DNA of 64,000 bases from Deltaproteobacteria bacterium (GTDB lineage: Bacteria > Desulfobacterota > Binatia > HRBIN30 > JACQVA1). Below the pieces are notes generated by a model, which did no database searches, was not told where the DNA came from, and saw only the letters and a list, made by a program, of their open reading frames with translations. This document shows, one piece after another, positions 1-60,865 of this stretch (position 1 is the stretch's first letter; each line of letters opens with the position of its first letter). The translations under genes and the position numbers were made by a program. Location: the NCBI GenBank assembly GCA_016178705.1, contig JACOST010000032.1:152448-216447 (forward strand), in the 5' to 3' direction.

Positions 1-3000
1 GATCGCGACGAAGCTGGCCAGACGCGCCTCGGACGCTAGCAAGTCGTAGCAATTGGAATCGAGGCGGCCTTCGGCGACCTGGTATCCGATCGACAGGAGC
101 TGCCGTGACGGATCGAAGAGAAAGCCGAACTCCATAGCCTCGAACATCTTGCGGGCAAGCGCGGCCAGCGCCGTAAGTCGCCGCTCCAACGCGCGCGCCG
201 TGCGACCGGAATGCTCGACAGCCGCGATGAGCGCTTCCAGCGCCTGGCCTTGCGCCGCTGCGTCGCCATTTGTGTCTCCACGCGCGGCGAGGTCTGCGCG
301 CCGACCGAAGAGGATCACGAGTACCGCATCGCAGCGGTCCGGCAGATCAGCCAAGGTGGGGATAGTGTCGAAGAGCGGGCGGAGCGCCGCATCCAAGTTG
401 CGAGACGGCCCTTCGAGACGCCGCCAAAATGACGGCGGCTCCTCAGGGCAAACGGTTGTGTTGTCGGTTTGAAAGGACCGTTCCGCTCGCCCTGAGGAGG
501 CCCCATTTTTTTGGGGCCGTCTCGCAGGGCTGTCTGGGACAGGATCGACGCCCTCCGGCGCAAGCAGACGCGCCCAGGGCATCAACTCCCGCAGATCGCG
601 GTCGTGGCTCTGGATGGAGGCACGCACTGCTTCCGCCCAGGCCAGCACGTCGGCGCTGCTGCCGTCGCCACGTTCCTCGCTCAGCGCTCGCGCGATGTCA
701 GTGACGGTGTCGGCGTGAAGAACGATCTCACCGAGCAGCCCTGCGACATCCGCCGGGGTCTCCGCCCGCGACTCATCGAGCGAAACCGCGAGAGCGTTGA
801 GCGCGTCGTCCAGTTGCTTCCGCGTCACCGTTTGTGTTCGGCGGTCGTCCGCGAGCGCGCCCAAGGCCTCACGAGTGAGCCCGAGCGCGTCGGCGATCCC
901 CGCGAACCATTGTGGACCCACCACAGCCCGGCCGACCAGTTCCCGACAGGCGTTTGAGAGAGCGATCAGGTGTCCCGCGAGATTTCCGCTGTCCACGGAA
1001 GAGACGTACTTCGGCTCGAGCGAACGAAGGTCACGCGTGTCGTACCAGTTGTAGAAGTGGCCGCGAAAGCGCTCGAGCTCATTCATCGTTCCGAGCGTCG
1101 CCTCCAATTTTTCCGTGGCATCGAGCGTACCGAACCAGCCGAAGTCGCGCGCGGCAACCACCGACAGGAGGTACAATCCGAGGTTCGTCGGGGAGGTCCG
1201 ATGGGCAACCACCGGCTTCGGATCTTCCTGAAAGTTGTCGGGAGGCAGCATGTGATCATCCGCCGCGACGAAGATCTCGAAGAACCGCCATGTACGACGG
1301 GCGATCAGCCGCAGTACCTGCGCGTTCGCGGCCGACACGGGCTCGGAGCCCGCCACGCTTGGTGGACGGCTCGCCCACTGCGCCACGACCGGTGACAACG
1401 TCCACAGAATCAAGAATGGACCCGCGATCAACGCCGCACCGTGCCCGGCGTACGCGACGGCGGCGGCCCCCGCTGCAGCCAACACGACGCCGCCAGCCAT
1501 CCGACGGTAGAAACCGGGGACATTGAGGGGAAGGCTGAACTTCGCCTGCGCGGCGGTCACCCACTCGAGCATGCGTCGGTGCGAAACGAACAGACGGAAG
1601 AGCGTGCGCACGATGGCGTCGGTCATCAACCACGCCTGATGCGCGAGCAGCGTGAGCGAGAACCCAATCTGTGACAAACCGAGCGCGAGATCCGAAGCTA
1701 CTGCGAGCAAGTGGCTACGCTTCGAAATCCCGAACCGTCGCGGCAGGATGCCGGCACCAAACGGTAGCAGCGCGGGCAGCGCGATCATCGCGAGGACGAC
1801 CCCGGTCCAGACCGCGGCAGCAATAGGCGGCAACATCCACCCTGCCGCGAGCGCGAGAAAAGTAACCGGCGCCGACACCGTGCGACGGAGGTTGTCGATC
1901 ATCTTCCAACGCCCGATCAAGGGAATTGCCCCGCAGACCGGGTCGCTGGTTGCGCCCCGTCCACGGCCGAGAATCCAGGGAAGCAACTGCCAATCACCGC
2001 GCGCCCACCGATGCTGCCGCGCCGCGGCGACGTCGTAGCGCGACGGGAACTCCTCGACGACCTCGATGTCGGAAGCCAGTCCAGCGCGCGCGAAAATGCC
2101 CTCGAACAGATCGTGACTCAGAAGCGTGCGCTCAGGCACCCGCCCTTTGAGGGCGGCTTCGAAGATGTCGACATCATAGATTCCCTTTCCGGTGAACGAC
2201 CCTTCGCCGAAGAGGTCCTGGTACACGTCGGAGACCGCAAACGCGTAGGGGTCGATGCCCCCGGGACCTGAGAACACACGCTGGAAGACCGACCCCTCAC
2301 GACCAATTGGCAACGACGGCGTGACGCGCGGCTGCAGCACCGCGTAGCCGTCGACGACGCGACGGCTATGGGGATCGAGCTGCGGGCGATTGAGTGGGTG
2401 CGCCATCTTCCCAACGAGTTGGCGGGCCGCTCCCCGCGGGAGTCGCGTATCGCCGTCAAGGGTGATCACGTAGCGTACGCTGGCCGGGACCGCGGGTGCG
2501 CGGTCGCCGATGGCAAGGAAGGTCGTGTCGGTAGCGCCGCGCAGCAATCGATTCAGCTCGTGCAGCTTGCCGCGCTTGCGTTCCCACCCGATCCACTTTC
2601 CTTCTCCCGCATTCCAGCGCCGCCCACGATGGAGCAAGAGGAATCGCGCGCCATCCGGTGCGGGTCCGTAGCGTTGATTCAAGCGGGCGATGCCCTCCGT
2701 GGCAGCACCCAACAGCGCGTCGTCGTCCGGCACACTCTCGCTGGCGGCGTCCGTCCAGTCAGAGAGCAGCGCAAAGTAGAGGTCGCCGGCCTCCGCACTC
2801 GCCAGATACCGAACCTCGAGGCGCTCGATCTGCTCTTCGATCTCCGTCGGCGTGGTCAAGAGCGTGGGCACGACGACCATCGTGCGCAGGTTCGACGGCA
2901 CGCCGTCGCGTAGCTCCAACGCCGGCAGTGCCGTGGGGCCGAACTGATTCGTGACGTGGCGATTCACCAGCGCCATCGCCACATCCGACGCCGGGACGAG

Positions 3001-4434
3001 GGCGAGCAGCGCGAGCAGGCCGAGCGCCGATCCGCCCACCCCGCATTCCGCGACACCGAGCAGAGACAGAGCGAGGATGATGGCGCTGAGGATCGCGACC
3101 GTTCCTAGATATCCGAAGATCCCCGCGGCCGCGTAGACGCGAGTGAGCCAGTGGCGCATCGGCACGCGAAATCCGAGCTCCGTCTCCAAGGCCCGCCGTC
3201 CCTTGGCGATGAGGTAGTAGCCGGGATCTTGCTCACGGCGACGGTCGGGCAATTCGCAAGCAGGGCCTCGAGACGGCTCCTGGAAAGATGGGGCCTCCTC
3301 AGCCCGAGCGGTATTGTTCCTTGGTTCGACCGACTTCTTCCGTTCACCCTGAAGAGTCGCTTCTGTTGGCGGCGTCTCGAAGGGCGCGCCGTCCGCGCAC
3401 TGGGCCGCGCGCAACGCGCGCCCGGCGACTTCGAGCTCCGAGTGTCCCGAGCCGCGCGCCAGCACTTCGATCGCGTGGCGGTAGCGATCCCGCGTCGGAA
3501 AATCCATGGCGGCAAAGTCGCTGCCAGCGCGAAGCTCCGCATCGACGAGGCTGACGTTCTCGAAGAACTCCGCCCAATCAACGGCGGACATCAAGCGCAT
3601 GCTGGTGATGACATTACGCACCGTGATGTTCATCGCACCCTGCCGCTGGTGTTCCTCGCGAACGATCTCATCGGCGGTTGTGCCCTGCGCGATGAGGCGG
3701 TCGTCCAGCCAGCGCAGAGCGGGTGTCACTGCCGGATCCTGATCGCGCAGCCGCTGGACGAGCTGGACCGCGAAGGCCGGGCGCGTCCGGTCGAAGCCTC
3801 GCAGGGCCGTTGCCGCCGGCTCGGGGGCGCGGTTGCCAACTCCGAGGAGGCGGTCAGCCAAGGCGTCGGCCTCTTGGCGCGCGGCGCGACTGCTCACGAT
3901 GCGCTCGGCCGCGCGGCGCAGATTCTCGACGAGTACGATGCGCAGCGTGATCGCCACTGCCCAGAGCTCACCGATCGTGAGCGGCTGCACCCGCTGATAG
4001 GCGCGCACGAACCGGCTCAGCGTCTGCGGATCGAACAAGCTGTCGGTGTGGGCGACGAAGGCCCAGGCGATCCCAAACACGCGCGGATAGCCCGCGAGAG
4101 ATCCTTCCGCCAGCTTGGGCAACTGGCGATAGAACCCGCTGGGAAGATCGTCGCGGATCTCGCGAATCTGTTCCTCGACCACGTGAAAGTTGTCGACCAG
4201 CCATTCGGCTGCGGGGGTGATGGCGCGTTCCTCACGGATGGCTTCGCCGATGGTGCGATACGCTGCGAGCAGCACTCGGCCATTGTCCCGCAGTCGGCTT
4301 GCCAGCGGTCGACCGACCCCAGGCCGCGGCGTTACACGTTGAGCCGCAGCGAGACTCTCGGCGTGTTGCTCCAGGCGCTCGATGCTGAACAATTCGCTGC
4401 GGATCGGCTCTTCGGGCTCTCGTGGGGGAGCCAT
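1..4434 (-). CDS. cyclic beta-1,2-glucan synthase-like giant glycosyltransferase (Cgs/NdvB/ChvB family), N-terminal 1478 codons; 3' end lies beyond nt 1
   Basis: Absent from ORF track (no stop in window). Hand translation of the minus strand from ATG 4434 stays open to nt 1: MAPPREPEEPIRSELFSIERLEQHAESLA..TPAAEWLVDNFHVVEEQIREIRDDLP..LTIGELWAVAITLRIVLVENLRR; TM block; VITLDGDTRLPRGAARQLVGKMAHPLNRP and QHRWARGDWQLLPW (GT84-type core); later HRTSPTNLGLYLL..FRGHFYNWYDT. Confidence 0.85.
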   Translation of the reverse strand, partial: MAPPREPEEPIRSELFSIERLEQHAESLAAAQRVTPRPGVGRPLASRLRDNGRVLLAAYRTIGEAIREERAITPAAEWLVDNFHVVEEQIREIRDDLPSGFYRQLPKLAEGSLAGYPRVFGIAWAFVAHTDSLFDPQTLSRFVRAYQRVQPLTIGELWAVAITLRIVLVENLRRAAERIVSSRAARQEADALADRLLGVGNRAPEPAATALRGFDRTRPAFAVQLVQRLRDQDPAVTPALRWLDDRLIAQGTTADEIVREEHQRQGAMNITVRNVITSMRLMSAVDWAEFFENVSLVDAELRAGSDFAAMDFPTRDRYRHAIEVLARGSGHSELEVAGRALRAAQCADGAPFETPPTEATLQGERKKSVEPRNNTARAEEAPSFQEPSRGPACELPDRRREQDPGYYLIAKGRRALETELGFRVPMRHWLTRVYAAAGIFGYLGTVAILSAIILALSLLGVAECGVGGSALGLLALLALVPASDVAMALVNRHVTNQFGPTALPALELRDGVPSNLRTMVVVPTLLTTPTEIEEQIERLEVRYLASAEAGDLYFALLSDWTDAASESVPDDDALLGAATEGIARLNQRYGPAPDGARFLLLHRGRRWNAGEGKWIGWERKRGKLHELNRLLRGATDTTFLAIGDRAPAVPASVRYVITLDGDTRLPRGAARQLVGKMAHPLNRPQLDPHSRRVVDGYAVLQPRVTPSLPIGREGSVFQRVFSGPGGIDPYAFAVSDVYQDLFGEGSFTGKGIYDVDIFEAALKGRVPERTLLSHDLFEGIFARAGLASDIEVVEEFPSRYDVAAARQHRWARGDWQLLPWILGRGRGATSDPVCGAIPLIGRWKMIDNLRRTVSAPVTFLALAAGWMLPPIAAAVWTGVVLAMIALPALLPFGAGILPRRFGISKRSHLLAVASDLALGLSQIGFSLTLLAHQAWLMTDAIVRTLFRLFVSHRRMLEWVTAAQAKFSLPLNVPGFYRRMAGGVVLAAAGAAAVAYAGHGAALIAGPFLILWTLSPVVAQWASRPPSVAGSEPVSAANAQVLRLIARRTWRFFEIFVAADDHMLPPDNFQEDPKPVVAHRTSPTNLGLYLLSVVAARDFGWFGTLDATEKLEATLGTMNELERFRGHFYNWYDTRDLRSLEPKYVSSVDSGNLAGHLIALSNACRELVGRAVVGPQWFAGIADALGLTREALGALADDRRTQTVTRKQLDDALNALAVSLDESRAETPADVAGLLGEIVLHADTVTDIARALSEERGDGSSADVLAWAEAVRASIQSHDRDLRELMPWARLLAPEGVDPVPDSPARRPQKNGASSGRAERSFQTDNTTVCPEEPPSFWRRLEGPSRNLDAALRPLFDTIPTLADLPDRCDAVLVILFGRRADLAARGDTNGDAAAQGQALEALIAAVEHSGRTARALERRLTALAALARKMFEAMEFGFLFDPSRQLLSIGYQVAEGRLDSNCYDLLASEARLASFVAI
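408..530 (+). repeat. 123-nt TIR-bounded palindromic (MITE-like) element, copy 1, inside the glucan-synthase ORF
   Basis: Ends gcccttcgagacgcc / ggccgtctcgcagggc are imperfect inverted repeats; nested inverted repeat 441-449 vs 489-497; GGCCCC-AT7-GGGGCC hairpin 499-518; aligns by eye over its full length with the reverse complement of 3263..3385. Confidence 0.6.
3263..3385 (-). repeat. 123-nt TIR-bounded palindromic (MITE-like) element, copy 2, opposite orientation, inside the glucan-synthase ORF
   Basis: gggcctcgagacggc ... ggcgtctcgaagggc termini; core gcgactcttcagggtgaacgg..ccgctcgggctgaggaggcccc (reverse complement) matches copy 1. Confidence 0.6.
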
Positions 4435-4889
4435 CGACAGTCCCTTGAGACTGCGAACAATTGACCGCTGCAATCGTGCGCTGCCTCGCACTAGCCTGAA
4501 GAAGAAAAAACGAGCTCCAGCGAAATGTAACGGTAAGATCATCGACAAGGCGCCCTGACGGGAACGAAGAGCCCACCGCCCTCGAACGAGATGTGTGCAA
4601 CACCTTTCGTTGGAGCTCTCCTGTCTGGGCGGGCTTGCGCCCGCGCGGTGTGGGGAGACTCGGCACTCCCGATGGGCTCGTGCACAGTTGTGTCGTGCGC
4701 CTCACGGCCAACAGCACCGATGTGCCATCGCCGCGTCTGCCTGAGTGTGGGGTGAGGAAGGCTCTCGGAGGCCCAAATGCGAGGGTAATCCTCGCGCCGA
4801 ACAGTCAGTAGGAACTGCACCATAGTCCCCGCCACCCAGAGTTGCAACCTTCGGTACTGTCTCCACACGTTGCGCGCGTACTCTGCGGA

Positions 4890-6704: not shown

Positions 6705-6823
6705 AGTCTTCGACTGTGAGTTCTTGAGGGGAGAACGCGCACCGTTTCACAAATCGGTCCATGTCTAAAACTCCCCTTGACCCGCTGGCGACGCTGCGAT
6801 GAAGTACCGCGGGCGAGGGTGGT

Positions 6824-8098
6824 ATGAGTAAGCTGATCATTACCGGCGGACGGCGATTGCGTGGGCGCATCCGCGTGGCAGGGAACAAGAATGCCGCGGC
6901 GCCGGTGTTGGCCGCGACGCTGCTCACCGATCAACCGATCCGACTCGGCAACATTCCCGACATCGAAGACGTGCGCGTGTTCGTTGAGATGCTGCGCGCG
7001 CTCGGCGCCACCGTCGAGTCTGCGGGTGAGGCCTGGCAGATCAGCACCGCCGCTGTGAGTTCGAGCCGCCCGGACCGGCGCCTCGCGCGCCAGATCCGCA
7101 TGTCGCTGCTGCTCGCCGGGCCGCTGTTGGCGCGCTTTGGGCGCGTGGCGTTGCCGTTCCCCGGCGGCGACGTAATCGGGCGGCGGCGCGTCGATACGCA
7201 CTTGCAGGCGCTGCAGGCGCTCGGCGCGTCGGTCGAAGTCACGCGCGAAGGTTATCGCTTGGCGGCCACACGCTTGCGCGGAGCCGAGATCTTTCTCGAT
7301 GAGATGAGCGTCACCGCCACCGAGAACACCATCCTGGCTGCGGTACTGGCTGAGGGCACTACCCTGATCCGTAACGCGGCCTCGGAACCGCACGTTCAGG
7401 ACCTCTGCAACTTCCTCGTCAGCCTCGGCGCCCGTATCGTTGGTATCGGCACCAACCTGCTCACCATCGAAGGTGTCACCAGTTTGCGCGGCGGCGAGTT
7501 CACGCTCGGTCCGGACTACATCGAGACCGGCAGCTTGATCGGCCTCGCCGCAGCGAGCGGAAGCCAACTCCGGATCGTCGACTGCCGTCCCAGCGATCAC
7601 GCGATGACGCGCATCATGTATGCCCGCCTCGGTATCCAGTGGAGCGTCGAGGACAATGACATCGTCGTTCCGGAAGGGCAGCGGCTCGAAGTGCTCGACG
7701 ACTTCGGGCACGCGATTCCAAAAATCGACGATGCGCCGTGGCCGGGCTTTCCGGCCGATCTGATTCCCATCGCGTTAGTGGTCGCCACGCAGGCACGCGG
7801 CTCGATCTTGATTCACGAGAAGCTGTTCGAGAGCCGGCTGTATTTCGTCGACCGCCTCATCCAGATGGGCGCGCGCATCGTCCTGTGCGATCCGCATCGC
7901 GCGGTGGTGATCGGACCGTCGAAGCTCTACGGGCAAGATCTCGCCTCACCCGACATCCGCGCCGGCATGGCGTTGCTGATTGCCGCACTGTGTGCCGAGG
8001 GCCGCAGCGTCATCCGCCATGCGCAGCAGATCGATCGCGGCTACGAACGGATCGATGAACGGCTCGCGGCGATCGGCGCGGATATTCGAAGGGAGTAG
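6824..8098 (+). CDS. murA: UDP-N-acetylglucosamine 1-carboxyvinyltransferase
   Basis: 424 aa; [30 protein letters not shown]-terminus and overall MurA layout; active-site loop [16 protein letters not shown]. Confidence 0.9.
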
Positions 8099-10084: not shown

Positions 10085-10190
10085 GTCGTCGCGACCGCTT
10101 CTTCGCCAATGGCGGCGCCGACGACGCGGCGCCCTCCACGAACCGGTTCATGAGCAGAGGCCGCCTTATTCTGGCGGCGTCTCGAAGGGC
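10085..10190. repeat. degenerate or partial copy of the 123-nt element (intergenic)
   Basis: ggcggcgtctcgaagggc at 10173-10190 is identical to the terminus at 3368-3385; upstream cgaccgcttcttcgcc resembles cgaccgacttcttccg of copy 2; the rest has diverged. Confidence 0.35.
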
Positions 10191-10245
10191 GTGTACGCGA
10201 GAGCATCGACGGTCTCGAAAGTCGGAATCCAGGAGTCACAACCCT

Positions 10246-10267
10246 CCGGCTTTCGCCGGCATGACGG
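10246..10267 (+). repeat. ccggctttcgccggNatgacg palindromic repeat unit
   Basis: ccggctttcgccggcatgacg; same core as 43838-43857; preceded by ggaatccagg, which is the complement of the cctggattcc arm seen at 43829. Confidence 0.5.
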
Positions 10268-12503: not shown

Positions 12504-15500
12504 TCACGCGCACTCGCCGAGCGCGTTGTTGACGCCGACCACTAGTTCATCGACCGTCACGTCGCCGCTCTGATCCCCGTCGAACTCGGGACAGTTCTCC
12601 AGTGGCACCGTTCCGAGCGCGATGTTGACGCCCAGCACCAGTTCTTCAACCGTGACCGCGCCGTCATGACCGCAATCGCCAACGCACGCCGGACCACCAG
12701 TCGTGGTCGGCGTCGGTGAGGCGCCCGGGGTCGTGGGCGTCGCGGTCGGCGTTGCCCCAGCACCGGCTGTGGTCGCGGTCGGCGACGAGGTGAAGGAGGC
12801 CAAGCCGGTCGTAGTTACTGTCGGCGTCGCGATCACCATGCCTGTGGGAGTTCGCGTCGGCGTAGGAGTCTGGGTTGGTGTGGCCGTCGGCGCATCCGGC
12901 ACGCTCAGATCGATGGCCCACAGCTCGATACCGTGAATCCCGTCGTTCACGACGAAGAAGAGATGATTGGCGGACACCCTGAAGTTGTACCCGGCGATCG
13001 CCGCGATAGGCACAGTGCCAGCGTCGGTGCCGTCGCTGCGCCACAGTTGTGTGCCGTGCACGCCATCGTTGGCGTCAAAGTAGAGTGTGCCACTCACATT
13101 GGTCAGAGATGACGGAAATGAGTGACCCGCCCCTGGATTGATATCCTTCACCAGCACCGTGCCGGTAGAGGTCCCGTCACTCTTCCACAGCTCGATCCCG
13201 GTGGTGCCGTCGTTGGCCGAGAAGAAGAGCGTGCCGTTGACGTTCGTGAAACCCGTTGGATTCGATCCAGTGGCGCCCGGAGCAATATCCTTCACCATCG
13301 TCGTGCCGGCGTCAGTCCCATTGCTGCGCCACAGCTCGCTGCCGTTGATTCCGTCGTTCGCCGTGAAGAGCAGCGTGCCGTTCAAATTGACAAGCTCGGC
13401 AACCCCGCCGCCGCTACCACCCGGGTGAATGTCTTTCACCAAGACGGTGCCGGCAGGCGTGCCGTCGCTCTTCCACAGGTCTCTGCCGAAACCGCCGTTG
13501 AAGGTGGCCACGGTGGTGAAGAAGAGCGTCGTGCCGATCGGAACAAAATTCTTCGGAATCGACGCCAAAGAGCCCGGAGCAATGTCCTTGACTTGAATCG
13601 TTCCCGCATCCGTCCCGTCGCTCCTCCAGAGCTCAATGCCGGTGGTGCCATCATCCGCTGTGAAGTAGAGGAGATTGCCGACGGCGGCCATGACGGGCGG
13701 AAAGGACGGATTGTCGTTACTGCCGGAGGAACCCGGATGGATATCTTTCACCAGGACTGTGCCGTCGGTCGTGCCATCGGTCTTCCACAGTTCGTAACCG
13801 TGGACCTGATCGTTGGCGTAGAAGAACAGCCAACCCCCGGCAATGGTGAAGCTGATCGGTGCAGAGTCGACCGTTCCGGGACGAATATCCTTCACCAACG
13901 TCGTACCCGCTTCCGTGCCGTCGCTCTTCCACAACTCGCGGCCGTGGGTGAATTCGATCGCGGAAAAAAACAGCGCTCCGTTGAATACCGTCAATCCCGC
14001 AGGTGGTGAGGTATTCGGCGGCTGGATGTCCTTGACTTGCATCGTGCCGGCATCGCTGCCGTCGCTCGTCCATAGATCGTACTCGGGGACACGTTGACTG
14101 GCGTCGCCGGCGTTCCTAGCCGAGAAGAAAAGTTTGCCCGCGAAGTTCGTGAGCGAGTCCGGAATACTGTCGGCCGTTCCGGGATAGACATCCTTGACCA
14201 GATGCGTGCCGGCATCCGTTCCGTCGCTCGTCCACAGCTCCGTGGCGCTCAGCGGATCGGTCGCGGCAAAGAACAGCCGACCATTGGCAACGATGAGATT
14301 GGACGGGTTGGAGTTCGCCGCGCCGGGATAGATGTCTTTCACCAATACGGTTCCGTTCACGGTCCCATCGCTCTTCCACAGCTCGGTCCCGTGCGTGCTG
14401 TCGCTGTTCACAAAGAATACCGTGCTGCCCAATTTCGAGAACGAGCCGGCAGCGCTAGATTGAATGGATCCGTGATTAGTGAGGGGGATGGTCCCGGCTT
14501 CCGTCCCGTCGCTCTTCCACAAATCGGAGCCCGTCGCGCTAAACGCCGCGAAGAACAGCGTGCCGTTTACGTCCGTAAACGCGAATGGGCTTTGGGCGAA
14601 GCTCTTCACCACCACCGTGCCGGTGGTCGTACCGTCACTCTTCCACAGGCCCGATGTCGTCTGGTCAACCGCCGCGCTGAAGAAGAAAGTACTACCGACA
14701 GCGCCCGCTCCGTAGGCAATTGGGAAGAGAGGGAAATTCGCAATCGCGTTGGTACCGCCGGTGGTGCCGTCGCTCACCCACAAGTCGAAGGTCGAACCGT
14801 TCGCCCCCAACGTCTGAAAAAAGAGCAAGTTGCCCGCCGCACTCAGACCGCTTGGTCCCACTCGAAGCAGGTTCGGCGGGAAGCTCTGCAGAAGTACAGT
14901 ACCGGCGTCGGTGCCGTCGCTCTTCCACAGACCAAAGCCGGTGCCGACACGCGCCACGAACAAGAGCGCTCCGCCGACGTTGACGAGACCCGAAGGGAAC
15001 GAACCTAGCCCACCGGGCACGATATCTTTCACTAGAACGGTTCCGGCTTCAGTGCCGTCGCTCTTCCACAACTCGTTGCCGCTCACGCCGTCGCTGCCAC
15101 TGAAGTACAGCACCCCGTTGACGTTGGTGAGGCTGTTCGGAATGATCGTCTTCACTAGCACCGTACCGTTGCTCGTGCCGTCGCTCTTCCACAAACCCAC
15201 GTGCGTTGCGTCCACCGTGGCGCTGAAGAAGAGGGTGCCGTTCACGTTGATGAACCCACTAGGCCTCGATTCGCCATTGGGGTTGATGTCTTTGACGAGC
15301 ACCGTGCCTTGCGCGGTGCCGTCGCTCTTCCACAGCTCGACGCCGTGCACACCGTCGTTGCCGGCGAAGAATACCGTGTCACCGACCGCCCCGGTATCCG
15401 CCACGCCGATCCCGCTCGGTTGCGGATTGATGTCCTTGACCAGGTAGGGTGCCGACGCGCCGTGTGCGAGCAACGGAGTGCCGAGAGCCAGCGTCAGGGC

Positions 15501-23826: not shown

Positions 23827-24923
23827 TGAATCAACATCGCATCGCCGTAGCTGTAGAATCGGTAGCGCTGCCGCACGGCATCTTCGTACACGGCGAGCGT
23901 TTGCTCGCGGCCGGCGAACGCACTGACGAGTGCCAGCAACGTCGACCCCGGCAAATGAAAATTGGTGAACAGCGCATCGATCACGCGAAAGCGATGACCG
24001 GGGCGAATGAACTGATCCGCCCAGCGCGCGCCGGCGCGCAGCGTACCCGCCGCGTCAACCGAAGACTCCAGGGCGCGCGTCGTCGTCGTACCGACCGCCA
24101 CGATGCGTCGGCCATCGCGGCGCGTCTCGGTGATCCGCGCCGCCGTCGCCTCGGGAATCTCGCACCACTCGGCGTCCATGACATGATCGTTCAAGTCATC
24201 GCCCCGCACCGGCAGAAACGTTCCCGGTCCGACGTGGAGCGTCACGAAGACGGTCGCGGCGCCCACTGCACGCAAGCCATTGAGCAGCGCGGGCGTGAAG
24301 TGCAAGCCCGCCGTCGGCGCGGCAATCGCACCGGGCTGCGACGCGTACACTGTTTGATAGCGCTCACGATCGAACGGCAGCGGTCCGTCCGGCCGCTTGA
24401 TGTACGGCGGCAACGGCACTTCACCGTGCGCGGCGAGGAGCGCGAGCACATCGTCAGTGTCGAAGGTGACATCGTAGCGACCGTCGCCGTGAGCGGCGCA
24501 AACAACCGCCGACGCGGCATCAGCGAAGCGCAGTTCAACGCCCGGCCGCAGTCGCTTGCTCGGTCGCCCCAGGCACTCCCACTCCGCCCCCTCTCCCTCT
24601 GGGAGAGGGCTGGGGTGAGGGCTTCTTCGCCAAATCACGAGCAGCTCGACGGCGGCGCCGGCGCTGGTTCGGCCGTACAGACGCGCCGGGATGACCTTGG
24701 TGTCGTTGAACACGAACACGTCGCCCGGGCGAACGAAACGAGCGAGGTCGGCGACGTGCGTGTGCGTGCGCGCAGCCGAGCCGCGATCCCAGACCAAAAG
24801 ACGCGCCTGCGAACGACCTACTGCCGGTTCCTGAGCGATCAATTCGGGAGGCAGGTCGAACTGGAAGTCGCCGAGAGAGAGGCGGGACGGTTCGGCACCG
24901 GCGATGTGAACAGCACTCTGCAT
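23823..24923 (-). CDS. queA: S-adenosylmethionine:tRNA ribosyltransferase-isomerase
   Basis: LGDFQFDLPPELIAQEP, FNDTKVIPARL, PLPPYIKRP. Start taken at M20; the ORF extends to 24980. Confidence 0.88.
   Translation of the reverse strand: MQSAVHIAGAEPSRLSLGDFQFDLPPELIAQEPAVGRSQARLLVWDRGSAARTHTHVADLARFVRPGDVFVFNDTKVIPARLYGRTSAGAAVELLVIWRRSPHPSPLPEGEGAEWECLGRPSKRLRPGVELRFADAASAVVCAAHGDGRYDVTFDTDDVLALLAAHGEVPLPPYIKRPDGPLPFDRERYQTVYASQPGAIAAPTAGLHFTPALLNGLRAVGAATVFVTLHVGPGTFLPVRGDDLNDHVMDAEWCEIPEATAARITETRRDGRRIVAVGTTTTRALESSVDAAGTLRAGARWADQFIRPGHRFRVIDALFTNFHLPGSTLLALVSAFAGREQTLAVYEDAVRQRYRFYSYGDAMLIQ
24589..24621 (+). repeat. 33-nt palindromic repeat family copy, in frame inside queA
   Basis: ccctctccctctgggagagggctggggtgaggg; read on the minus strand as [11 protein letters not shown]. 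Confidence 0.7.
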
Positions 24924-26621: not shown

Positions 26622-26677
26622 GCGTGCCAGAACCTGCCCCAGGTGAGGGTTTGGCGCAAGCTCAGCCTTGTCCGACT

Positions 26678-26759
26678 GTAGGGGCGACGCATGCGTCGCC
26701 CGCGAACTAGCAGGTTCGCCACGGTTGAAGACGGAGGGCGATGCATGCATCGCCCCTAC
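26678..26759. repeat. 82-nt composite element: two 24-nt units (GTAG + perfect 20-nt palindrome) inverted, 34-nt spacer
   Basis: gtaggggcgacgcatgcgtcgccc (26678-26701) and gggcgatgcatgcatcgcccctac (26736-26759); same 24+34+24 architecture at 60557..60638. Confidence 0.7.
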
Positions 26760-32230: not shown

Positions 32231-34819
32231 TCAGCTCCCGACAAAGATCCGGCGCGCGGTCGCGAAAGTGTCCTGCGGAGTCACGACGCCGTCGCCGTTG
32301 GCATCAACACCCGCGGCGGCCGCAAAGGTGCCCCGCCCGACATCTTCGACACGGTGACTGTCACTGTCTGTGACCTGCCGCTGCGCCGCCACCAGATCCG
32401 CGGCGGAGACCCGTCCATCGCCATTGCCGTCGCCGCGCAGCACCGGTGTCGCACCCGAGTTGTTGAGGGCCGACACATTCATCGCGGTCGAAGCGTTGCC
32501 GGTTGCAACATCGTAGCGTCCGTCGGCGTTGAAGTCGGCCGTAACGATTGCCTTCGGTTGGCGGCTGATCGTCACACTGCCGGCGCGCATCAAGCGCCCG
32601 GTTTGGGTGTTCACCAGCACGGTCACGTCGTTCGACACTTGATTGGCGACGACGATGTCGGGCCGCCCGTCACCATTGAAGTCGCGGGCAACGATCCCCG
32701 ACGGGGTACTGCCGGCTGCGGGTGGGAACGTCGGAATCGTGAAGCTGCCCATGCCGTTGCCGGTGTACACTTCCACGCGCTGGCCGGTGGCCGTCGCCAC
32801 CGCGAAGTCATCGAAGCCATCGCGATTCAAGTCGAGGGTCGCGAGCGCCACTGGATTCATCCCGACCGGCACCACCGAGCCGGTGTGAAAGGTGCCGTTG
32901 CCATTGCCAAGCAGAACCGACACGTTGTCGGAGCCGCTGTTGGCAATGGCGAGATCCTCGAAGGCGTCACCGTTGAAGTGCCCGACCACGATGGCCACCG
33001 GCGTGTTGCGGACACCCGTCGTGCCTGCGCTGTGCAACGTGCCGTCGCCGTTGCCCAACATCACCGTGACAGAGCCCGGCTCACCGATGGACACAAGGGC
33101 GATGTCCGGGATGCGATTGTTGTCGAAGTCGCCGACGACACCCGCTACCGCGTGAGCCGTCGTGGCAATGACCGCCTGCGAATCGAACGTGCCGTCACCA
33201 TGACCCAACAGCATCGAGATGCTGCCGGTGCCACCATTCACGGTGGCCAGATCGAGCTTGCCGTCGCGATTGAAGTCGGCCGCGACCGCCGCGCTCGGGT
33301 TGCTGTCTACCTCGATGTCGCTGCCCGCGAGAAATTTGCCGTCCGCTCGCGCCAGATACAAGCGCGCGCGACTGCTCGTATCGGCTCCGAAGGTGACCGC
33401 GATGTCCGGCAAGCTGTCACCATCGAAGTCCCCTGCCACCATGCCAGAGACCGTCGAGCCGACCAAGATGTCTTCAACGCCCAGCAAACGCCCGGGACTG
33501 CGATTGAGCAGCACCGCCACGTCGGGGCCTTGGGTTGCCTGGTTGCCGGTGACCACGTCGGGCTTGCCGTCACCGTCGAGATCACCGACGGCCACCACGA
33601 GCGGCTCTCCATCCGCCACGAACGTGCGGGCGGTCGCGAAATGTCCGCGCCCGTCGCCTAACAACACACTCGCATCGGTGCTCCGGCTATTGCTCGTGAC
33701 AATGTCGAGATGATTGTCACCATTGGTGTCGGTGACCACGACGTCCGACGGCGTATTGCCGGCTGCTAGGGTCGGCCCAACGGTGAAGTGTCCCTGCCCG
33801 TCTCCGAGCAACACCACCAGACCGGTCGGTACCGCGACGATCAAGTCACGCCGGGTGTCTTCGTTGACGTCGCCGCCGGCGGCGGCGGCGGGTGCCGTTC
33901 CTATGTTCGTGTCGATGCGCGGCATGAAGTTTCCGTGTCCATCGCCGAGAAACACCGAGACGGTCTGACTGGCGCTGTTAATCGCCACGACATCGGGCTT
34001 GGTATCACCATTGAAGTCACCGATGACGACGGCGTTGGTCTTGGAACCCGCCGCGCGGGTCGTGATCCGCCCGAAGGTACCGTCGCCATTTCCGAACAGG
34101 ACACTGACCTTGCCGTCACCGTCGCCGTTACCTTCGCTGACCACCGCCACGTCGATGTGTCCATCGCCATCGAGGTCGGCCGCGGCCACGGCCCCGGGGC
34201 CCGCAATCGTGTTGCACGTCCCCACGCCGGCTACGCGACATTCGTCCATGTCGCCGGTCAACTGTGGGTTGCAGCGCCGGCTGAAATCCCCCGTACACAC
34301 ACCACCGAGCACAAACGTCAACGGGCTGCATGTGCCGACGCTGTCCAGCTCGCATTCATCGAGACTGCCGGAATCCATCGAGGGCTCGCACTCCCTGCTG
34401 GTGTCGCCCGTGCAGTAGTAGTGAAAGCATACCGGGTCACCGTTCGGACACGGATCGCTAAAGCGCTTGAGGACCGATACGGTCGACACGTTGGCATTGG
34501 AGACCACGACATCGGGATTGTGATCCCCGTCCATGTCGGCGATCGCCAACCCCATCGGCACCGTGCCCGCGTTGAACTTCGGGAACGAGAACACGTTGCC
34601 CATGCCGTCGCCCGTCAAGAGCGTGATCGACGCACTATCGGAGTTCGCCGTGATCACGTCCAAGTGGCCATCCTTGTCCATGTCGGCGATCGCGATCGCC
34701 GAGGGCCGGCCATCGGTTCCCGTGGTCACAGCCGAGTCGAAGTTCGCCGTTTGCGCCCCCACCCATACCGGCACCAACAGCACGCCCACACCCACCAGCC
34801 TCGTACGAAACCGCCACAT
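32231..34819 (-). CDS. secreted FG-GAP/VCBS-repeat (integrin-alpha-like) protein with Cys-rich insert and C-terminal dockerin-like module
   Basis: 862 aa; signal peptide; more than 10 repeats of the D.DGDG..D type (ADMDKDGHLDV, GDLDGDGKPDVV, DFNGDGRPDIVV); C-terminus GDGNGDGRVSAADLVAA and DANGDGVVTPQDTFA. Confidence 0.85.
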   Translation of the reverse strand: MWRFRTRLVGVGVLLVPVWVGAQTANFDSAVTTGTDGRPSAIAIADMDKDGHLDVITANSDSASITLLTGDGMGNVFSFPKFNAGTVPMGLAIADMDGDHNPDVVVSNANVSTVSVLKRFSDPCPNGDPVCFHYYCTGDTSRECEPSMDSGSLDECELDSVGTCSPLTFVLGGVCTGDFSRRCNPQLTGDMDECRVAGVGTCNTIAGPGAVAAADLDGDGHIDVAVVSEGNGDGDGKVSVLFGNGDGTFGRITTRAAGSKTNAVVIGDFNGDTKPDVVAINSASQTVSVFLGDGHGNFMPRIDTNIGTAPAAAAGGDVNEDTRRDLIVAVPTGLVVLLGDGQGHFTVGPTLAAGNTPSDVVVTDTNGDNHLDIVTSNSRSTDASVLLGDGRGHFATARTFVADGEPLVVAVGDLDGDGKPDVVTGNQATQGPDVAVLLNRSPGRLLGVEDILVGSTVSGMVAGDFDGDSLPDIAVTFGADTSSRARLYLARADGKFLAGSDIEVDSNPSAAVAADFNRDGKLDLATVNGGTGSISMLLGHGDGTFDSQAVIATTAHAVAGVVGDFDNNRIPDIALVSIGEPGSVTVMLGNGDGTLHSAGTTGVRNTPVAIVVGHFNGDAFEDLAIANSGSDNVSVLLGNGNGTFHTGSVVPVGMNPVALATLDLNRDGFDDFAVATATGQRVEVYTGNGMGSFTIPTFPPAAGSTPSGIVARDFNGDGRPDIVVANQVSNDVTVLVNTQTGRLMRAGSVTISRQPKAIVTADFNADGRYDVATGNASTAMNVSALNNSGATPVLRGDGNGDGRVSAADLVAAQRQVTDSDSHRVEDVGRGTFAAAAGVDANGDGVVTPQDTFATARRIFVGS

Positions 34820-43761: not shown

Positions 43762-43783
43762 GAGGTCCCAGCAGTGGGTCCGC

Positions 43784-43857
43784 CATACCGGCGAAAGCCG
43801 GTATCCAGGCGGGGGCGTGGGGTGTGAGCCTGGATTCCGGCTTTCGCCGGAATGACG
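43784..43857. repeat. inverted pair of the ccggctttcgccgg / cctggattcc repeat (23-bp arms, 17-nt loop)
   Basis: ccggcgaaagccggtatccaggc (43788-43810) against gcctggattccggctttcgccgg (43828-43850), 1 mismatch. Confidence 0.65.
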
Positions 43858-51756: not shown

Positions 51757-51760
51757 GGTG

Positions 51761-51793
51761 CCCTCACCCCTGCCCTCTCCCAGAGGGCGAGGG
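51761..51793 (-). repeat. 33-nt palindromic repeat family copy at the DUF35 / thiolase junction
   Basis: ccctcacccctgccctctcccagagggcgaggg; supplies the PSPSGRGQG-TGA end of the DUF35 gene. Confidence 0.7.
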
Positions 51794-54028: not shown

Positions 54029-56968
<2,940 letters not shown>

Positions 56969-56973
56969 CGGTC

Positions 56974-60394: not shown

Positions 60395-60865
60395 GTGGCG
60401 TGTTGCTCAGCTTGTAATCACGATAGTCCCACGGGTTCGAAGTTCTGCCCGGAGTGCGGCACAGCCCTGGGAGAGCACTGCGCTCAGTGCGGCAGCGACC
60501 TGCCGGCGAGTGCGAAGTTTTGCAATCAATGCGGCGCTGTCGCGGGTGCGTCCGGTGTAGGGGTGACGCATGCGTCACCCTCCGCTGCACGCGATGGCCC
60601 CAGTGACGACGGACGGGCGAGGCATGCCTCGCCCCTACAAGATGAAGCAACCCCTGCGTCTTCAGGCGAGCGGCGCCAACCCACGGTCATCTTCTCCGAT
60701 CTCGTCGGCTCCACCGCGCTCAGCACGCAGTTCGATCCCGAGGAGTGGCGCGAGATTGTGTCGCGTTGCCAGCGCGCTACAACAGCCGCCGTGCAAGAAT
60801 TCGGCGAGCATCATGCCAAGAACCTCGGCGATCGGGAAGAGCTAAGGAACGGACGCGATGAGTAA
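60395..60865 (+). pseudogene. 5' remnant of a double-zinc-ribbon / class III adenylate-guanylate cyclase gene
   Basis: CSACNHDSPTGSKFCPECG..CAQCGSDLPASAKFCNQCG, then ERRQPTVIFSDLVGSTALS..DPEEWREIV..AKNLGD. The frame then diverges (REELRNGRDE-stop), so the rest of the cyclase domain and any C-terminal domains are missing. Confidence 0.6.
60557..60638. repeat. 82-nt composite palindromic element, second copy, inside the cyclase-remnant ORF
   Basis: gtaggggtgacgcatgcgtcaccc (60557-60580) + 34 nt + gggcgaggcatgcctcgcccctac (60615-60638). Confidence 0.7.

Follow-up and report, generated by a model that had tools for sequence, protein, structure and literature searches.

Cyclic glucan synthase and its two inserted segments

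The window analyzed here is a 64,000-nucleotide stretch of a contig from a Binatia genome. Its left end is occupied by a minus-strand gene for a cyclic beta-1,2-glucan synthetase (Cgs, 1..4434), which leaves the window at that end and for which the ATG at 4434 is the probable start codon. We searched the Cgs frame, whose codons have their first bases at positions divisible by 3, for a stop and found none from 4703 to 1, so both repeat copies described below do lie in one stop-free ORF, as the initial annotation had stated. The product matches PDB entries 8rf0 and 8rf9 with E=0, the alignment with 8rf9 covering residues 263-2790, and its homologues, with the N-terminus covered, are annotated as cyclic beta-1,2-glucan synthetase. 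Pfam and NCBIfam searches with the 1478-residue portion of Cgs in the window gave almost no matches because the family domains lie beyond the window; the identity of the gene is therefore settled by the PDB and homologue searches. In a locus holding the complete gene (L121), the called gene carries the Pfam domains Glycoamylase, GH94_b-supersand and Glyco_hydro_94. The architecture is that of Cgs (NTD, six TM helices, GT84, a GH144-like cyclase (CY) domain and GH94), with an intact ORF that is open across ~3000 codons and retains the catalytic motifs. The NCBI MAG contig contains the same sequence, as do Logan contigs from four runs, and therefore it is not an assembly artefact.

Two segments of this ORF are missing from 47 of 47 Cgs homologues, the closest (76-79% identity) included, and by this comparison both are insertions. 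The segment before the first TM helix, copy 2, lies on the minus strand, with a 123-nt core at 3263..3385 (family HMM 3385-3265, E=1.5e-29) made up of an L unit (3346-3385), a variable spacer and an R unit (3263-3305). Its full homology extent is 3238..3389 (nhmmer with the full-length model, E=3.4e-26; start at 3238/3240), corresponding to positions 23-172 of the 174-position family model: the core and right arm are present, and the left arm is missing its outermost ~22 nt. Copy 2 encodes Cgs residues ~349-399 (~50 codons), and the peptide previously quoted for it is the exact product of the minus-strand frame at 3385..3263. Copy 1 lies on the plus strand, with a 123-nt core at 408..530 (family HMM 408-528, E=5e-31; L unit 408-449, spacer 450-488, R unit 489-530) and a full extent of 400..555 (nhmmer E=7.8e-32; model positions 19-173). 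It comprises the core and a right arm ending in the degenerate terminal repeat ATCGACGCCCTC, has lost the outermost ~18 nt of its left arm, and encodes Cgs residues ~1294-1345 (52 codons) antisense to the element. The 123-nt element of the initial annotation is thus the core length at both copies, but homology runs further on both sides, to ~3238/3240-3389 and 400-555. The repeat here also coincides with a mis-called gene start.

The copy 2 site maps between residues 339 and 347 of A. tumefaciens Cgs, at the end of the NTD and directly before TM1, in keeping with the linker position first proposed for it. Copy 1, in contrast, had been placed in a linker between the central and C-terminal catalytic regions, and we find it in the interior of the CY domain, probably in that domain's protruding helical motif. 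Variable regions of 8rf9 correspond to both sites. The expectation that the inserts occupy tolerant sites or surface loops is borne out at the level of prediction: AlphaFold2 models both as coil flanked by confident helices, with block-mean pLDDT of ~32-37 for copy 2 and 30-53 for copy 1 (AlphaFold2 residues 74-120 and 1018-1055, respectively, are coil with pLDDT <50), although these low values are partly automatic because the columns have no homologue coverage.

The two copies differ markedly in preservation. Copy 1 keeps its hairpin potential: its core registers as an inverted repeat (I1), and a fold of -86 kcal/mol (z=-9) is obtained for the 133 nt of 403-535 on either strand. Copy 2, with a minimum free energy of -39.8 kcal/mol (vs -48.7 to -91.4 in the other 50 family copies) and a fold z-score of ~0, has decayed structurally further than any other of the 51. 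A third copy, truncated and apparently intergenic, lies on the minus strand at 10158..10216 (nhmmer E=1.8e-13; model positions 1-59) and retains only the left-hand part of the element, from the terminal inverted repeat GAGACCGTCGAT through the left arm to the L unit. Terminal repeats in the window are found on one side each of copy 1 (degenerate), copy 2 (very degenerate, CCCGACCGTCGC) and the third copy. Because copies 1 and 2 show neither a complete terminal-repeat pair nor a recognizable target duplication, their exact boundaries and junction-deletion history are reconstructions. One further candidate terminal repeat, GATAGTGTCGAA at 361-372, proved to be a chance match; it encodes the FDTI conserved in homologues and is host sequence.

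The window contains the 19-mer GGCCCTTCGAGACGCCGCC 3 times (0.17 expected), and the segment at 3263-3385 had been described as an inverted copy of 408-530. The family HMM confirms this by placing the two on opposite strands. Their cores are 77% identical when inverted vs 70% in the same direction. The diagnostic inner stem distinguishes the two units (GCCGCC/GGCGGC vs GGCCCC/GGGGCC) and settles the relative inversion more firmly than these identity figures. Each copy is ~85% identical to copies in other genomes and only 77% to its partner in the window, and the two fall in different subfamilies, which suggests independent insertions. Contigs ~90% identical, from relatives in other metagenomes, carry element sequence at both Cgs sites, which suggests that the element is present in relatives ~9-10% diverged. 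These contigs are short and end at the repeat, so they do not fix its boundaries, and a search of related metagenomes for an empty-site allele returned only such short contigs breaking at the repeat. The weakest fold of all copies, together with the element sequence in ~90% identical relatives, points to copy 2 as an old insertion.

A palindromic repeat family with hallmarks of mobility

Our census of distinct copies scoring at least 70 bits gave 51 strong copies, mostly from Binatia and "delta proteobacterium" MAGs. The modal total length of full-length intergenic members is 173 nt, the 123 nt being the conserved core alone. The full element is bounded by the terminal inverted repeats GAGACTGTCGAT and ATCGACAGTCTC, followed inward by arms of ~25 nt, and the core consists of two inverted, self-folding hairpin units of ~43 nt each, separated by a variable spacer. 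The unit reads GCCCT-TCGAGAC-GCCGCC-loop-GGCGGC-TCCTC-AGGGC, with TCGAGAC and TCCTC as invariant internal-loop motifs. Covariation supports the outer and inner stems of each unit: 96.7% of cells pair, 9 pairs show double changes, 3 pairs of the outer R-unit stem account for 11 double compensatory changes each, and the observed score was reached by no shuffle. The core is a heterodimer with respect to its inner stems, and singlet remnants also occur. In sediment metagenomes, word depth is 100-320x on the units vs 3-18x on the flanking gene. A search of Rfam with the window and eight related loci left the element unmatched, giving only sub-threshold microRNA-hairpin noise, and a literature search with words of the element sequence returned only primer coincidences; the family, mainly of Binatia, appears to be undescribed.

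The full-length copies show the features expected of a miniature mobile element. Both outer terminal repeats are present in 25 of the 51 copies, and 12 of these 25 have an exact 4-bp direct repeat at offset 0, while in mismatched pairs, used as a control, a repeat of at least 4 bases at any allowed offset occurs in 7%. The element is small (~173 nt), non-coding and dispersed, and the two Cgs segments are absent from orthologues. The preferred target, found in at least 12 of 22 flanks, is a different hairpin repeat, CCCTCTCCC-N4-GGGAGAGGG, which the element enters at the loop. At one locus (L140), the same terminal repeats enclose different interiors, with duplications AAAG and TTTG. Among 236 fetched loci there was no transposase enclosed by a terminal-repeat pair and no recurrent neighboring gene. 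When 1826 ORFs near elements were clustered, small groups were all that emerged besides ORFs that read through the element itself; five representatives of these groups, read by eye, were housekeeping genes with no Y1 transposase among them. A search for terminal-repeat pairs spaced as in an IS yielded no convincing candidate. Since the 236 loci hold no parent element, our case for transposition draws only on the terminal repeats and target duplications.

The same core is also found between at least four other arm types and, arm-free, in Alphaproteobacteria, and because of this the core may spread by its own, different route.

Seven of the 51 copies (14%) are intragenic and in frame, all in real genes; the others have no spanning long ORF. 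The hosts are Cgs (twice), a cyclase-AAA ATPase, an Lhr helicase, a PMT/ArnT transferase, HypF and a DUF4912 protein. Pfam domains flank the insert on both sides in 5 of 7, and in the hosts at L169 and L233 they lie upstream of the insert only. Alphaproteobacterial relatives of the element are in frame in three genes, for oxoprolinase, PDH E2 and GlyS. In-frame insertion into unrelated genes is thus seen in 7 Binatia-type and 3 alphaproteobacterial cases, most with Pfam domains on both sides. Inserts of the FETPP...PEE... type occur in Cgs, oxoprolinase, PDH E2, GlyS, HypF and Lhr.

Comparison with known repeats

It is instructive to compare the element with three groups of bacterial repeats. 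Rickettsia palindromic elements (RPEs) are described in PMC10969869, in its summary of Ogata et al. (2000, 2002), as palindromic repeats of ~100-150 bp in many copies, some in frame in unrelated housekeeping genes. By the same account (PMC10969869) more than one can occur per gene, at fold-compatible sites, translated as added peptide segments, and the large majority of RPE-1 copies are intragenic. The likeness, which we draw from behavior only, lies in in-frame insertion at tolerant sites and in two insertions in one gene (Cgs). The Binatia element differs in that ~14% of its copies are intragenic, against the large majority given for RPE-1 in that summary; in its hosts, which are free-living, GC-rich Binatia (with relatives in Alphaproteobacteria) and not reduced intracellular genomes; and in its clear terminal repeats and 4-bp target duplications. 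Given its composition (61% GC) and its hosts, membership in RPE-1 to RPE-10 is very unlikely.

The core resembles REPs and REPINs in that two hairpin units, mostly unlike each other, face in opposite directions across a spacer of 20-100 bp, and in that singlet remnants occur; it is an inverted doublet in the REP/REPIN sense. The REPIN concept is reportedly due to Bertels and Rainey. The units of the element are longer (~43 nt) and have a conserved asymmetric internal loop. REP superfamilies carry a GTAG or CGTC head beside an 8-9-bp stem, and REP dimers inside ORFs encode 20-30 residues, sometimes twice per ORF (Di Nocera et al. 2013, PMC3733652). The supplementary lists of PMC3733652 contain none of the DNA or peptide motifs of the element. 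Membership in the CGTC or GTAG REPs, suggested by a CGTC that abuts the stems, was rejected: the element has no GTAG, and CGTC occurs only within GTCTCGAA, on the 3' side of the stem. The source genome does hold CGTC-type REPs, at 43781-43857, which are a different repeat.

Correia, ERIC and Nezha are examples of bacterial MITEs that have terminal repeats and duplicate their target (PMC10969869). The element shares with MITEs its small size, non-coding sequence, multiple copies, terminal inverted repeats, short duplication and occasional in-frame gene fusion. It differs in that its GAGACTGTCGAT terminal repeats matched no family here, and in that its interior is a REP-like doublet common to several phyla while the same ends carry other interiors. 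IS1397-like IS elements target REP hairpins, and the preference of the element for another palindromic repeat is a further likeness.

Origin of the Cgs insertions

We consider it likely, with a probability of about 0.8, that the element is a non-autonomous palindromic mobile repeat (a MITE), and that 3263-3385 represents the core of a copy, now old and decayed, that survived through frame-keeping, stop-free insertion into a disordered segment. In the history that we propose, an old MITE copy would have inserted at this site of Cgs, with a transposase acting in trans, and would have been kept because the net insertion was in frame, stop-free and in a disordered surface segment, so that it would now be translated as ~50 extra Cgs residues. 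Copy 1, of another subfamily, would have entered a CY-domain loop in an independent event, oriented the opposite way. Later junction deletions would have removed one outer arm of both copies, and the inserted peptide would be neutral.

The initial annotation had offered two explanations for an element that is open on both strands, namely selection for coding-compatible insertions or strong filtering of those that survive. Under the former, a length that is a multiple of three and openness on both strands would be selected, with genic insertion as a strategy, as once proposed for Rickettsia palindromic elements. The modal core (123 nt) and the modal full length plus duplication (173+4=177) are indeed both multiples of 3, and the 14% of copies in frame in real genes, with the alphaproteobacterial oxoprolinase, PDH E2 and GlyS cases, point the same way. 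So does the number of open frames, 3.20 of 6 vs a dinucleotide-shuffle expectation of 2.95, an excess that is marginal but not zero (p ~0.05) and that comes from related, non-independent copies. However, cores of exactly 123 nt make up only 22 of 51 (43%; p=0.09 vs one third), core length ranges from 118 to 146 nt over the family and from 122 to 124 nt in the intragenic copies, and 86% of copies are not spanned by any long ORF despite the mostly coding nature of bacterial genomes. A conserved in-frame TGA, only one per strand, shuts one frame on each. Each of the three frames of the CCTTCGAGACG end is in use among the 10 intragenic copies, and the element peptides differ between hosts by frame. 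Very large protein libraries searched with element-coded peptides returned almost nothing, although these searches (zero shared words for the copy 1 peptide, three tiny hypothetical ORFs for a four-peptide profile, and three matches in an exhaustive HMMER search with one of those ORFs) are uninformative on frequency. On either strand the CCTTCGAGACG end is read first and the CCCTGAGGAG motif later; the two-strand openness comes from GC-rich composition and near-palindromy, largely from the latter. We therefore regard selection of the element for coding as very improbable. That only 7 of 51 copies are intragenic, and that all 7 are in frame, fits the filtering alternative: survival of copies would reflect filtering of insertions, not design, in an element that does not appear to be intrinsically built for coding.

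Three other accounts bear on how the copies came to be where they are. The 123-nt core could be a REPIN-type REP doublet, spread as single-stranded DNA by a RAYT or IS200-IS605-type tyrosine transposase and nested in a separate armed element; the individually folding inverted units with their variable spacer, the singlet remnants and inner-stem heterodimer, the occurrence of the core among at least five arm types and arm-free in Alphaproteobacteria, and the retention of the core with incomplete arms in the window would all agree with this. We nevertheless think it unlikely, since the units have neither the GTAG or CGTC head nor the AT-starting stem of the described REP superfamilies, no recurrent neighbor gene was found, and the sole insertion signature observed is that of terminal repeats with a 4-bp duplication. 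That the peptide has been recruited for Cgs function (a flexible tether or an interaction loop, for instance) is highly doubtful: the insert is apparently kept in relatives ~9-10% diverged and the long ORF remains open with its catalytic motifs, but the insert is lacking in 47 of 47 homologues and has a prediction of disorder, and its sequence is whatever the repeat happens to encode. The position of the two copies, inverted and 2.7 kb apart in one gene (repeat I4), might suggest duplication and inversion of copy 1 inside Cgs, or an assembly chimera at the repeat. This has next to no likelihood, given that the copies are closer to those of other genomes (85%) than to each other (77%) and belong to different subfamilies, that the MAG and the Logan contigs of four runs agree, and that the reading frame is unbroken through both.

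Palindromic repeats inserted in frame have been described before, in Rickettsia and in other bacteria, and our understanding of such insertions is unchanged. The independent MITE insertions proposed here provide a clear case in which a palindromic mobile repeat was absorbed twice into the coding sequence of one large enzyme, outside Rickettsia and in the poorly studied, uncultured phylum-level lineage Binatia. For annotation, it is useful to know that such repeats lengthen proteins, create spurious small ORFs and break short-read assemblies. The family is now defined by features that can be measured, namely its terminal repeats, the 4-bp duplication and the hairpin loop as target. A speculative extension, which we rate as improbable, is that the two-hairpin core represents an ancient, undescribed superfamily of structured repeats in Binatia and many Alphaproteobacteria, recognized by a candidate new protein (through a REP-transposase pairing or as a host factor), riding different palindromic carriers and repeatedly seeding peptide segments in housekeeping enzymes of free-living bacteria, as a free-living counterpart of the Rickettsia elements. 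The conserved core in common with Alphaproteobacteria points to a candidate recognition protein.

Inverted repeat copies in an intact glucan synthetase gene

On the minus strand, window positions 1-4703 form a single frame without a stop, and a check of the host frame from 4703 to 1 found none in either copy of the 123-nt repeat core (copy 1, 408-530; copy 2, 3263-3385). The encoded protein matches cryo-EM chains 8rf0/8rf9 (E=0), and the top database relatives carry the name cyclic beta-1,2-glucan synthetase (Cgs). Read from ATG 4434, the first 1478 residues of Cgs lie within the window and the remainder lies past the left edge; this remainder, with Glycoamylase and GH94 domains, is found in JACPZC010000024.1 (GCA_016195705.1, a groundwater MAG). 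In the start region (12445 in L121, the source-gene contig locus) the public annotation opens Cgs at the internal ATG of window 3633, for 2756 aa; the ATG at 4434, backed by homologues whose alignment begins at residue 10, adds 267 N-terminal residues, for ~3023 aa in total. The peptide ..PFETPPTEATLQGERKKSVEPRNNTARAEEAPSFQEPSRGP.. reported for copy 2 is the exact translation of 3385..3263 in the stop-free minus frame.

The initial annotation described two inverted copies of one repeat within this intact frame, and three measures agree with it: the family HMM matches opposite strands (408-528, plus, E=5e-31; 3385-3265, minus, E=1.5e-29), the two cores are 77% identical when inverted versus 70% in the same orientation, and diagnostic inner stems set their relative orientation. 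A 19-mer from the left end of the element occurs three times in the window (0.17 expected). Copies in other genomes share ~85% identity with either Cgs copy, more than the two share with each other, and the two belong to different subfamilies, indicating independent insertions rather than an intragenic duplication. The identical sequence is present in Logan contigs from four sequencing runs, so the copies are not an assembly artefact.

In alignments with 14 and later 47 homologues (best 76-81% identity), both segments are missing from every homologue (0/47): the copy 2 site holds 72 residues in the host versus ~33 in homologues, and the copy 1 site 76 versus 38 in the closest homologues. On this comparison of sequences, both Cgs segments are insertions. 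In P0001, the closest Cgs homologue, an unrelated extra segment of ~22 residues (..GDAGSPSDLAAPRDQRERSVEETPAAGP..) lies within a few residues of the copy 2 site; the linker appears to have taken up insertions more than once.

Copy 1 folds at -86 kcal/mol (z=-9 on both strands). The fold of copy 2 is the weakest among 51 copies (-39.8 kcal/mol, versus -48.7 to -91.4 elsewhere), which fits an older insertion that has drifted. In ~90%-identical relatives from sediment metagenomes of other studies, contigs that are short and end at the repeat pass from host gene into element at both sites, suggesting that the Cgs insertions are probably inherited, not recent.

Structural setting of the insertions

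Aligned against 8rf9, copy 2 maps to the gap between residues 339 and 347, where the N-terminal domain ends and shortly ahead of the DPGYYL segment and TM1, in keeping with the linker first proposed for it. Copy 1 maps between 1217 and 1227 and therefore lies inside the CY (GH144-like) domain (residues 979-1535), not in a linker between the central and C-terminal catalytic regions as had been supposed; it is probably part of the protruding four-helix motif of ~120 residues. For window residues 279-1478, AlphaFold2 (47 homologues; mean pLDDT 72.9) predicts coil for both stretches, with block-mean pLDDT of 32-37 for copy 2 (model residues 74-120) and 30-53 for copy 1 (1018-1055), low values that are to be expected in part, given that those columns are empty in every homologue. 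Confident helices border both predicted coils, and the model supports the expectation that the inserts occupy tolerant sites.

Anatomy and targets of the repeat family

Two pattern scans and an HMM gathered 51 distinct strong family copies from GTDB species genomes. Of the 31 strong-copy loci (outside L197-L236) classified by record title, 27 are in Binatia or 'delta proteobacterium' MAGs, three in one Margulisiibacteriota-labelled MAG and one in a cyanobacterium-labelled MAG. The core consists of two inverted ~43-nt units with a variable spacer between them: the L unit reads GCCCT-TCGAGAC-GCCGCC-loop-GGCGGC-TCCTC-AGGGC, and the R unit is its mirror image with inner stem GGCCCC/GGGGCC. Each unit folds on itself. 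In this two-hairpin model 96.7% of cells pair and nine pairs show changes on both sides, and in the R unit all three outer pairs switch in 11/25 sequences each (GC to AU, CG to GC or UA). The observed covariation score lies above that of every shuffle, and the signal collapses in slid controls. The RNAalifold alternative, a four-way fold, is built on invariant parts of the core. TCGAGAC and TCCTC, which face each other within the unit, show no variation, which suggests recognition of these internal-loop motifs by a putative protein. Rfam holds nothing resembling the element.

The flanks of independent copies are conserved for ~25 nt on either side of the core, and terminal inverted repeats (GAGACTGTCGAT... 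/ ...ATCGACAGTCTC) are present in 25/51 copies, giving a full element with a modal total length of 173 nt. In 12/25 copies an exact 4-bp direct repeat abuts the two ends, compared with 7% of mismatched pairs having a repeat of at least 4 bases at any allowed offset. Insertion occurred within another repeat, CCCTCTCCC-N4-GGGAGAGGG(CTGGGGTGAGGG), at no fewer than 12 of 22 distinct sites: at ~8 of these the element occupies the 4-nt loop, which becomes the duplication, and at the remainder it lies within the GGGAGAGGG arm. This loop, the preferred site in other Binatia, is empty in all three window copies of the hairpin repeat (CCCTCTCCC-TCTG-GGAGAGGG-CTGGGGTGAGGGC; 24589-24622, 51760-51793 inverted, and 56936-56969).

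At locus L140, elements at 6786-6946 (161 nt) and 6984-7114 (131 nt) carry the family terminal inverted repeats around unrelated interiors, with 4-bp duplications AAAG and TTTG, at least the second in a CCCTCTCCC...GGGAGAGGG hairpin loop; the same ends thus carry several cargoes. The core also lies within palindromic arms of four or more other kinds, and in Alphaproteobacteria it takes the form of a shorter doublet, CATCCTTCGAGACGCCGCC...GGCGGCTCCTCAGGATGAGG together with the inverse; it may have a separate, REPIN-like mode of spread. Full-length copies have the properties of MITEs, a parent IS excepted: no transposase turned up, ORFs near the elements share no recurrent family besides element translations, judged from the representatives read, and terminal-repeat pairs at IS-like spacing gave no convincing candidate. 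From the terminal repeats and duplications we infer mobilisation in trans by a putative transposase making 4-bp staggered cuts.

Within the window, copy 1 extends over 400-555 (model positions 19-173 of the 173-nt form), copy 2 over 3238/3240-3389 (23-172), and a truncated third copy over 10158-10216 (1-59). The same arm is shortened in both Cgs copies, each of which is missing its outer ~20 nt. The DNA adjoining copy 1 encodes LDAALR, which is conserved in homologues, so that DNA is host sequence. A full insertion would add 173+4=177 nt, or 59 codons, and would therefore be frame-preserving when intact, a total that could be coincidence (one chance in three). The observed net gain is ~38-39 codons per Cgs insert; in our reconstruction, in-frame junction deletions after insertion would have reduced 59 codons to that number.

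The window also holds other repeats. CGTC-type REPs as defined by Di Nocera et al. (CGTC-ATTCCGGC-GAAA-GCCGGAAT-CCAGG) form an inverted dimer at 43781-43857 and a single unit at 10218-10265, which directly adjoins the truncated third copy. A short palindromic repeat forms an inverted pair 34 kb apart (TGTAGGGGCGACGCATGCGTCGCCCG / CGGGCGAGGCATGCCTCGCCCCTACA; 26677-26702 and 60614-60639), and long arrays of diverged ~141-162-nt repeats (60-80% identity; 12918-15390 and about 32650-34543) look like repeats within large putative protein-coding genes.

Coding design or filtering

The initial annotation had read a 123-nt element open on both strands as evidence of either selection for coding-compatible insertions or strong filtering of those that survive. 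Both Cgs cores are 123 nt long and open in the host frame. Across the family, 22/51 cores measure 123 nt (122 nt in 13/51; range 118-146 nt), and the multiple-of-three excess is p=0.09. The seven intragenic cores measure 122, 122, 122, 123, 123, 123 and 124 nt, indicating that frame is kept by the net insertion, not the core. Open frames average 3.20 of 6 per copy (maximum four), with one conserved TGA per strand, within CCCTGAGG, compared with 2.95 in dinucleotide-preserving shuffles (p about 0.05, the copies being phylogenetically related) and 1.67 in mononucleotide shuffles; nearly all of the openness is accounted for by composition. Between copy 1 and its reverse complement identity is 73%, so the 'other strand' is nearly the same sequence read again; both Cgs insert peptides end (P/A)EE(P/A)PSF. 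The element is not built for coding, or at most marginally so.

The filtering branch fared better. Seven of the 51 strong copies lie within a long ORF encoding a recognisable protein, with consistent GC3 on both sides: Cgs (two), an adenylate cyclase-AAA ATPase, Lhr helicase, a PMT/ArnT glycosyltransferase, HypF and a DUF4912 protein. Pfam domains flank the insert on both sides in 5/7 hosts (upstream only at L169 and L233), and translation runs antisense to the element in six, with copy 2 alone being sense (not significant). The HypF host (L178) has a second stretch without a Pfam domain match downstream of its insert (..GLGGRNSQDLSEVRPQPFEATQRGADPSHRRGAQPFAD..), which may be another repeat-derived insert. 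Alphaproteobacterial doublets (SFETPP...PHPEE...VSKDE) are also in frame, in 5-oxoprolinase (L226 2535-2645), a pyruvate dehydrogenase E2 linker (L193 3326-3454) and glycyl-tRNA synthetase beta, GlyS (L051 116-225), with Pfam domains on both insert sides in the first two. Across the ten intragenic cases the CCTTCGAGACG end is read in all three frames (FET, LRDG, PSRR). Although a bacterial genome is coding for the most part, 86% of copies are intergenic, indicating either that insertions into genes are strongly purged or that the element is strongly directed to intergenic DNA; its preference for a hairpin loop suggests that targeting contributes too.

In behaviour the Binatia element resembles Rickettsia palindromic elements, which are in-frame palindromic insertions at tolerant sites, sometimes twice per gene (PMC10969869), and is also like the REP dimers that Di Nocera et al. 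(PMC3733652) catalogued inside genes. It falls outside the definition of the GTAG/CGTC REP superfamilies, the CGTC-type REP of this genome being a different repeat, and its motifs are missing from the lists in PMC3733652. The observation that opened this analysis is correct, and of its interpretation filtering and tolerant sites stand while intrinsic coding adaptation does not: the event is real and ordinary in kind, and the repeat family behind it appears undescribed.
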